Shown here: positions 1-52,793 of the stretch, one piece after another
Layout: each line of letters opens with the position of its first letter
Numbering within the stretch: position 1 is the stretch's first letter
Source: Escherichia coli
Lineage (GTDB): Bacteria; Pseudomonadota; Gammaproteobacteria; Enterobacterales; Enterobacteriaceae
Length of the DNA stretch: 64,000 nucleotides
Direction: 5' to 3' (one strand)
NCBI RefSeq assembly: GCF_003334405.1
Contig: NZ_QOWM01000014.1
The notes under the pieces: model-generated
The model's input: only the letters and a program-made list of their open reading frames with translations
What the model was told of the DNA's origin: nothing
Databases searched by the model: none
Program-made: the position numbers and the translations under genes

Positions 1-62
1 AGTGGTGGCGCATTATAGGGAGTTATTCCGGCCTGACAAGAGGAAATTTAAAATAATTTTCT
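1..62 (-). promoter_or_regulatory. rRNA operon P1 promoter (rrnA-type) with A/T-rich UP element; transcription exits the window start
   Basis: Minus strand reads cctcttgtcaggccggaataactccctataatgcgccaccact: -35 ttgtca, -10 tataat, GC-rich discriminator, start near position 3; A/T-rich block 41-62. Matches canonical rrn P1 from memory. Confidence 0.8.
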
Positions 63-88
63 GACCGCGCATTTTTTATTCTTTATGC

Positions 89-634
89 TTATTTCAGCGT
101 CGGTTTGTCGGTTAAATGGGCGATTTCTCGGGCGAAATTCGCCACCTGCTCCCAATCGGTATAGACAACTTCTTTGCGCGTATCCGTTTCACCGCCTGAC
201 ATCTTCATAATCAGCTTGATCATAAAACGGTCGTACCAGCGATAACGTGGGTAACGCAGCGCCCCGGCAATGACCGCGCAGCGATCGGGACGCCATTGCG
301 AGTTCATCAGAAACTTGCGCGCGTAGCTGTTGGTCTGTGGAGTACGCTTCTCCGGTTTGCGCGCCACCAGATTCACGGAGTAAAAGGCGCTCGGCATCGA
401 ATTCAGCCGCGTCGCATGTTTTTTGACAAATTCCTGGAACGCTGAATGGTAGTGACCATAGCGAATAGAAGCACCAATGACCACACGGTCATAGTTTTCC
501 CACTGTGGTTCTTCAATGCGGTGCACATTGGCGACATCCGCCTGGATCCCCAGTTCTTTCAGTTCCGAAGCCAGGTAGGAGGCAATCTCGCGCGTTTGTC
601 CGTCCCTTGTTGAGAAAAGAATTAATGTTTTCAC
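89..634 (-). CDS. hemG: Protoporphyrinogen IX dehydrogenase (flavodoxin-like, menaquinone-dependent)
   Basis: Track ORF 181 aa, [20 protein letters not shown]...; recognised as HemG. Confidence 0.95.
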
Positions 635-6460: not shown

Positions 6461-7633
<1,173 letters not shown>

Positions 7634-7639
7634 CCACTT

Positions 7640-7822
<183 letters not shown>

Positions 7823-7884
7823 ATGGTTTGCCAGATACGTCATAGATCTAAATGCCACTGAATAACAGTTTAGTTGCCGTTCTT

Positions 7885-13277: not shown

Positions 13278-15520
<2,243 letters not shown>

Positions 15521-48529: not shown

Positions 48530-48736
48530 AAAAAAACGCCTGCTCTTATTACGGAGCAGGCGTTAAAACAGGTCTGTATGACAACAAGTGGGTGCTTCAC
48601 TCAACGTTGTGTCCATGGTGTCTGATGAGGCATAAGCGACATCTGTCAGTGGACGATAAGCACCGTAAACGGCTCTGCGTCATTCCGGAGTTTATGAGGC
48701 ACTAAGGCGAACATAAGAGATGGAATGAGCATCTAC
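48530..48736 (-). ncRNA. glmZ: Small regulatory RNA GlmZ
   Basis: Minus strand reads gtagatgctcattccatctcttatg...ending gcaggcgttttttt with a terminator hairpin; matches the GlmZ sequence I recall (about 207 nt), convergent with hemY. Confidence 0.88.
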
Positions 48737-52356: not shown

Positions 52357-52433
52357 TGGTCGGCGAGAGAGGATTCGAACCTCCGACCCACTGGTCCCAA
52401 ACCAGTTGCGCTACCAAGCTGCGCTACTCGCCG
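52357..52433 (-). tRNA. proM: tRNA-Pro (UGG)
   Basis: 77 nt; minus strand cggcgagtagcgcagcttggtagcgcaactggtttgggaccagtgggtcggaggttcgaatcctctctcgccgacca. Confidence 0.93.
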
Positions 52434-52475
52434 AAATACTGCTTTTTGAATTTTTAGTTCAATTCTTTAAAGTCG

Positions 52476-52562
52476 TGGTGCGAGGGGGGGGACTTGAACC
52501 CCCACGTCCGTAAGGACACTAACACCTGAAGCTAGCGCGTCTACCAATTCCGCCACCTTCGC
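52476..52562 (-). tRNA. leuT: tRNA-Leu (CAG)
   Basis: 87 nt with long variable arm; minus strand gcgaaggtggcggaattggtagacgcgctagcttcaggtgttagtgtccttacggacgtgggggttcaagtcccccccctcgcacca. Confidence 0.93.
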
Positions 52563-52582
52563 ATTGTCACAACTTCTAATAA

Positions 52583-52659
52583 TGGGGTGGCTAATGGGAT
52601 TCGAACCCACGACAACTGGAATCACAATCCAGGGCTCTACCAACTGAGCTATAGCCACC
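52583..52659 (-). tRNA. hisR: tRNA-His (GUG)
   Basis: 77 nt including the extra 5' G; minus strand ggtggctatagctcagttggtagagccctggattgtgattccagttgtcgtgggttcgaatcccattagccacccca. Confidence 0.93.
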
Positions 52660-52716
52660 ACTACAAATCTTGTTACGCGGTATTACTACCACCGCAGCTC
52701 AAGCGCCGGGACTAAA

Positions 52717-52793
<77 letters not shown>

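Follow-up and report, generated by a model that had tools for sequence, protein, structure and literature searches.

The first 62 nucleotides of the analysed DNA (a stretch of 64 kb, here called the window), read on the minus strand, were identified as the P1 promoter of the rrnA rRNA operon of Escherichia coli, with a probability of about 0.97. The promoter is directed leftward and out of the window, which opens at position +3, two bases downstream of the start site. No promoters of E. coli are stronger than the P1 promoters of rrn operons, on which UP elements, activation by Fis and growth-rate control have classically been studied. The presence of rrnA P1 at the window edge is a correct annotation rather than a discovery; the promoter with its UP element and its activation by Fis is already known textbook biology. 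The analysis further pointed, with a confidence only slightly above even odds, to a double use of DNA upstream of the promoter: the last ~10 codons of hemG and its stop codon may also serve as two Fis sites of the rrnA activator region. According to this reading, the spacing to P1 is frozen without indel in at least 80 species of Enterobacteriaceae, regulatory demands fix a rare TTA codon and two wobble bases, and the C-terminus of HemG drifts between 176 and 183 amino acids. Since no terminator intervenes, transcription of hemG would enter the Fis-bound array and P1.

Architecture and operon context of rrnA P1

The reverse complement of window positions 1-62 reads AGAAAATTATTTTAAATTTCCT-C-TTGTCA-GGCCGGAATAACTCCC-TATAAT-GCGCCACC-ACT. 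A promoter scan of the minus strand detected TTGTCA-16-TATAAT at 39 to 12, with 11 of 12 positions matching, placing the -10 hexamer TATAAT at 12-17 and the -35 hexamer TTGTCA at 34-39. The scan and the identity with rrnB P1 defined the 16-bp spacer GGCCGGAATAACTCCC at 18-33. The G+C-rich discriminator GCGCCACC (4-11) was assigned from its sequence and from identity with rrnB P1, and the latter also placed the first three transcribed bases, +3 to +1, at 1-3. The start site is presumably the A complementary to window position 3, nine bases past the -10 hexamer, if the convention for rrnB P1 is followed. The UP element (-38 to -59; 41-62) is identical to that of rrnB P1. All these features lie on the minus strand. 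The original prediction had seen a canonical rrn P1 core followed by an A/T-rich UP element at the window start, and both are borne out by the promoter scan and by identity with P1 of rrnB and rrnC. The 43 nt that it took as the core are real, but they extend from +3 to -40 and the UP element begins at window position 41.

As far as the sequence can tell, the elements that characterize an rrn P1 promoter were thus present: hexamers with a 16-bp spacer, a discriminator of the form GCGCC(A/T)CC, an A/T-rich UP element at about -40 to -60 and, in silico, a Fis site I centred at -71 with more predicted Fis sites upstream. They are accompanied downstream by a P2 promoter some 120 bp on, a leader with boxA and a 16S-tRNA-23S-5S operon. 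The 40-nt core occurred exactly once in the 64-kb window and was absent from 100 dinucleotide-preserving shuffles, even with up to three mismatches allowed; the feature thus stands at the coordinates originally given and far exceeds chance expectation. UP elements have been mapped experimentally at all seven rrn P1 promoters (bioRxiv 10.1101/2020.02.05.936344; PMC4696680).

On this architecture, sigma-70 RNA polymerase would recognise TTGTCA-16 bp-TATAAT, and two alpha C-terminal domains (alpha-CTD) would bind the A/T-rich UP element between -38 and -59. The G+C-rich discriminator and the short spacer would yield a short-lived open complex, through which ppGpp/DksA and the level of the initiating NTP should be able to affect the promoter. 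Such growth-rate and stringent control of rrnA P1 is to be expected from its sequence identity with rrnB P1. Upstream Fis dimers, the proximal one centred at -71, would contact alpha-CTD and raise transcription during fast growth. This scheme corresponds to published summaries of rrn P1 promoters, in which alpha-CTD binds the UP element, Fis activates via alpha-CTD in fast growth and H-NS represses; the discriminator confers sensitivity to ppGpp/DksA and the initiating NTP, and P1 dominates in exponential growth while P2 provides a basal level (PMC4696680; PMC5179076).

The genomic context was assessed with a 2.5-kb query from the window start. It was matched in 5426 of 5426 complete E. coli genomes, and 5425 of them carry the region as a single stretch that spans at least 80% of the query. 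The match includes trkH, hemG and yigZ and is nearly identical to K-12. In the K-12 record (L001), the DNA beyond the left window edge continues from hemG through a spacer of 377 bp to 16S rRNA, tRNA-Ile, tRNA-Ala, 23S rRNA, 5S rRNA and mobB-mobA; the genes that come after hemG in the genome are rrsA-ileT-alaT-rrlA-rrfA, with mobB next, and the hemG side of rrnA is preceded by trkH, yigZ and pepQ. P2 lies ~120 bp downstream of P1 (TTGACT-16-TATTAT; L001 9581-9608), boxA TGCTCTTTAACAA is located in the leader at about L001 9647, and the 5' end of 16S rRNA is at +293 (L001 9790). Rfam models detected 16S, 23S and 5S rRNA and the two tRNAs in the K-12 record. Between tRNA-Ala and 23S rRNA, the rrnA spacer also contains a StyR-44 match (124.9 bits; L001 11662-11770), which is part of the pre-23S leader. 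In NC_000913.3, hemG occupies 4034608-4035153 and rrsA starts at 4035531; from these coordinates the P1 start is 4,035,239. Published RNA-seq data place an RNase III processing site within the hemG-rrsA spacer at 4035410 (PMC5371410). The original prediction of an rRNA operon transcribed leftward just beyond the window thus agrees with complete E. coli genomes, which contain P2, the boxA leader, 16S rRNA, the tRNAs and both 23S and 5S rRNA there. Leftward extension, which it had suggested as a check, retrieved both P2 and the 16S leader, so the case in which leader and 16S gene are lacking did not arise.

The 62 nucleotides alone cannot name the operon, since rrnA, rrnB and rrnC are base-identical from -68 to +12. 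An assignment to P1 of rrnB or rrnC is nevertheless refuted by the gene context and has a negligible probability: the flanking gene is hemG, after trkH, yigZ and pepQ, whereas murI precedes rrnB, and yieP and rrnC are divergent. A promoter copy that is orphaned or decayed and lacks a functional rRNA operon, for which only the end of the window at +3 would speak, can be dismissed in view of the complete operon downstream in 5425 of 5426 genomes and of a transcribed leader that RNase III cleaves (PMC5371410).

The source strain of the window is, to judge from the DNA, very near K-12. Exact identity with MG1655 was ruled out by differences from NC_000913.3. The first 2223 bases are nevertheless identical, and the non-identity therefore changes nothing for rrnA P1. 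The first difference, a single-nucleotide polymorphism at window position 2224, converts residue 177 of YigZ from Ala to Val. The fadA-fre intergenic region with REP/naRNA4 (CssrE; window ~7633-7824) is shorter than in NC_000913.3 by ~99 bp, one repeat unit. The remainder differs by 16 mismatches and 4 gaps over 56 kb, and several phylogroup-A-like isolates matched the stretch at 100%. Elsewhere in the window, Rfam models detected naRNA4 (7692-7769), EsrE within ubiJ (14915-15166), GlmZ (48530-48736) and the tRNA cluster argX-hisR-leuT-proM (52360-52793), all on the minus strand and all annotated in K-12.

Fis-type sites and the 3' end of hemG

The gene hemG (89-634, minus strand; open reading frame and annotation) has a GTG start and encodes a menaquinone-dependent protoporphyrinogen IX dehydrogenase of 181 amino acids. 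It is the upstream neighbour of rrnA and co-directional with it. Its stop codon at 89-91 corresponds to -88 to -86 relative to P1, and 26 nt separate it from position 62, the distal limit of the UP element, close to the 30 bp originally estimated. With a co-directional hemG ending at -86, only Fis site I fits into this gap.

Fis sites were searched by scoring 15-mers against the degenerate consensus GNNYRWWWWWYRNNC with 11 specified positions. The underlying site model has G at -7, C at +7, an A/T-rich centre and the flanks Y-4 R-3 / Y+3 R+4. As a positive control, the scan recovered Fis sites I-III of rrnB at -71, -102 and -143, each matching at 10-11 of 11 positions. Six of the seven MG1655 rrn operons gave a match centred at -71; in rrnE, this simple scan gave no consensus match centred there.

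In the window, Fis site I GAATAAAAAATGCGC (67-81, minus strand; 11/11 consensus) is centred at -71 in the intergenic region, 7 nt from the hemG stop. Two more predicted sites overlap the gene. Site II GACGCTGAAATAAGC (87-101, minus strand), centred at -91, would cover hemG codons 178-181 and the stop codon; it was proposed from conservation and matches 8 of 11 consensus positions. This value is below the reporting threshold of the scan and was counted by hand from the sequence, with both G/C anchors present. Site III GCCCATTTAACCGAC (107-121, minus strand), centred at -111, would cover codons 172-176 and matches 10 of 11 positions. The G/C anchors, the A/T-rich centre and the flanks expected of a putative Fis site were found at 67-81, 87-101 and 107-121. 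The Fis-type sites at -91 and -111 would thus be written into the stop codon and the last ~10 codons of hemG. They fall in the C-terminal tail of the protein, beyond the Pfam domain Flavodoxin_5, which spans HemG residues 4-152. Two other consensus matches within hemG of K-12, at -123 (9/11) and -134 (10/11), were dropped as Fis sites because they had no conserved G/C anchor pair across species. Given these K-12-specific matches, the sites occupied in E. coli may differ from the conserved set.

The conclusion that the activator region must overlap the hemG 3' end was supported, with a qualification: the predicted sites at -91 and -111 overlap the gene, but Fis site I is intergenic. A check for Fis sites overlapping the 3' end, which had been proposed along with it, yielded the candidates at -91 and -111 by consensus scan and phylogenetic footprinting. 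Fis would be expected to occupy both and to contribute through them to rrnA activity. For each rrn P1, three to five Fis sites have been proposed, and in a gel shift with a 500-bp rrnA promoter fragment the number of Fis sites agreed with the original report (PMC4696680).

No intrinsic terminator was found between the hemG stop and P1 (window 62-91; L001 9412-9460), in contrast to clpB before rrnG, which is followed by a clear hairpin terminator. Transcripts of hemG would presumably run into or through the upstream region of P1. Termination by Rho, a roadblock formed by Fis and read-through into the rrn leader are candidate routes by which these transcripts end.

Conservation across Enterobacteriaceae

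A collection of species-representative genomes was scanned with HemG, and the best 80 of 181 relatives were analysed with one locus per species. All of them were Enterobacteriaceae (Escherichia, Salmonella, Citrobacter, Enterobacter, Lelliottia, Raoultella, Klebsiella, Kosakonia, Cedecea, Buttiauxella, Trabulsiella, Franconibacter and others); the species are related, so that the counts given here for these best 80 of 181 relatives do not represent independent events. Of the 80 loci, 68 ended before +330, as is usual where a repeated rRNA operon interrupts draft assemblies. In all 12 loci that were long enough, the 5' end of 16S rRNA was found at +267 to +313.

Among the best 80 of 181 relatives, the distance from the hemG ATG to P1 was free of indels in all 80 species. 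In every locus that reached the promoter, the -35 hexamer (TTGTCA in 71 of 74) stood at the same ungapped distance from the ATG, and the -10 hexamer had an identical ungapped position in 64 of 64 (TATAAT in 55, TATACT in 9). The nine loci with TATACT belonged to Buttiauxella, Cedecea, Dryocola, one Enterobacter sp. and one uncultured Buttiauxella. A discriminator GCGCC[T/A]CC was observed in 62 of the 64 loci reaching it; its form in most genera was GCGCCTCC, compared with GCGCCACC in E. coli rrnA. The A/T-rich columns of the UP element from -56 to -41 were conserved across 77 species. HemG itself varied between 176 and 183 amino acids within the best 80 of 181, solely through relocation of the stop codon in DNA without indels; three times the number of HemG residues plus the distance from the stop to the -10 hexamer amounted to 614 in every case.

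Within the variable stretch from -120 to -60, G/C columns were judged conserved when they were shared by at least 95% of the species. Six columns qualified, again in the best 80 of 181 relatives: G-118 (80/80 species), C-104 (78/80, although the amino acid varies), G-98 (77/80), C-84 (80/80), G-78 (80/80) and C-64 (77/78). An Ala codon, of which it is the first base, dictates G-118; the other five cannot be explained by coding. Together with G-118 they make up three pairs of the type G-N13-C at intervals of 20 bp, with centres at -111, -91 and -71, all with A/T-rich cores (0.89-0.92; 0.89 for the -91 site) and with Y-4 R-3 / Y+3 R+4 flanks. Across the 575 nt of hemG, a conserved G/C pair coincided with an A/T core above 0.6 at just one further centre, -491. 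In HemG forms of 177 amino acids the stop codon is TAG, and its G is the conserved G-98.

The columns in the hemG tail and spacer might instead reflect HemG coding, codon usage, an RNA hairpin or hemG terminator, or binding of H-NS or Lrp, an explanation that we consider improbable overall. Coding does account for G-118, and NNC codons are common in enteric bacteria. C-104 and G-98, however, are third positions of codons 176 and 178, at which the majority residue is present in only 35% and 45% of the species, respectively; hemG has 40 codons at which the amino acid varies, and in no others of these was the third position conserved at 95% or more. C-84, G-78 and C-64 are non-coding in most species. 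Codon choice was also unusual for Leu174 at the centre of the -111 site, for which 66 of 70 species among the best 80 of 181 relatives used the rare codon TTA. In the rest of hemG, TTA accounts for 9.7% of the Leu codons, and none of the other conserved Leu positions showed such fixation.

A small palindrome surrounds the stop codon in some Kosakonia sequences and would be compatible with an RNA element. RNAalifold with 25 species, however, predicted no consensus base pair between -130 and -40, and no terminator-like site was detected, so that an explanation by RNA structure is unsupported. A conserved terminator as the cause of the conserved columns was rejected for the same reasons. H-NS and Lrp bind or act at the upstream regions of rrn P1 promoters and could add to the constraint (PMC4696680). 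The columns are, on the other hand, paired exactly 14 nt apart around A/T cores with the flanks of the Fis model, and the proximal pair coincides with the canonical position of Fis site I in six of seven E. coli rrn operons. These features argue for Fis-type sites in the hemG tail. In that case, sites of an rRNA promoter within the 3' end of hemG would constrain synonymous positions and the placement of the stop codon across Enterobacteriaceae, a small example of overlapping codes.

Comparison with other stable-RNA promoters

For all seven rrn operons of MG1655, the sequences upstream were aligned on the -10 hexamer. P1 of rrnB and of rrnC is identical to rrnA P1 from -68 to at least +12, and the three operons share this block through the core promoter but diverge completely further upstream. 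A co-directional gene ending very near P1 was found in three operons, rrnA, rrnB and rrnH; rrnC, rrnD and rrnE have divergent neighbours. Upstream of rrnG, clpB is co-directional as well and a Fis consensus match is centred at -71. This gene ends already at -152, however, with a hairpin terminator before the activator region, and the core promoter and UP sequences are unlike those of rrnA. The same two sequences also distinguish rrnH from rrnA. The co-directional gmhB upstream of rrnH ends at -77, nearer to P1 than hemG, and a Fis consensus match is likewise present at -71.

A similar arrangement of Fis sites is known from the tyrT promoter, whose upstream activating sequence contains three sites at -71, -91 and -122. 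Like rrnA P1, it is a stable-RNA promoter with a G+C-rich discriminator and a close Fis array that starts at -71 and continues 20 bp upstream. It differs in the gene it serves and in the position of the third site, and to our knowledge its array does not overlap an upstream coding sequence.

The closest counterpart of rrnA P1 is rrnB P1, which has the same UP element, hexamers, 16-bp spacer and discriminator and a Fis site I at -71. It also has a co-directional upstream gene, murI, which ends at -82 compared with -86 for hemG, and its distal Fis sites are located in coding sequence. The two regions are unrelated upstream of -68, and the distal sites of rrnB at -102 and -143 contrast with those predicted for rrnA at -91 and -111, in steps of 20 bp. 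The operons differ further in their spacer tRNAs, which are those for Ile and Ala in rrnA and for Glu in rrnB. The two upstream Fis sites of rrnB P1 inside murI have been reported (bioRxiv 10.1101/2024.03.27.586983), so that for rrnB and murI a coding overlap of distal Fis sites is already on record. The indel-free spacing and the imprint of Fis anchors on the wobble and stop region of hemG are a neat but incremental, comparative addition.
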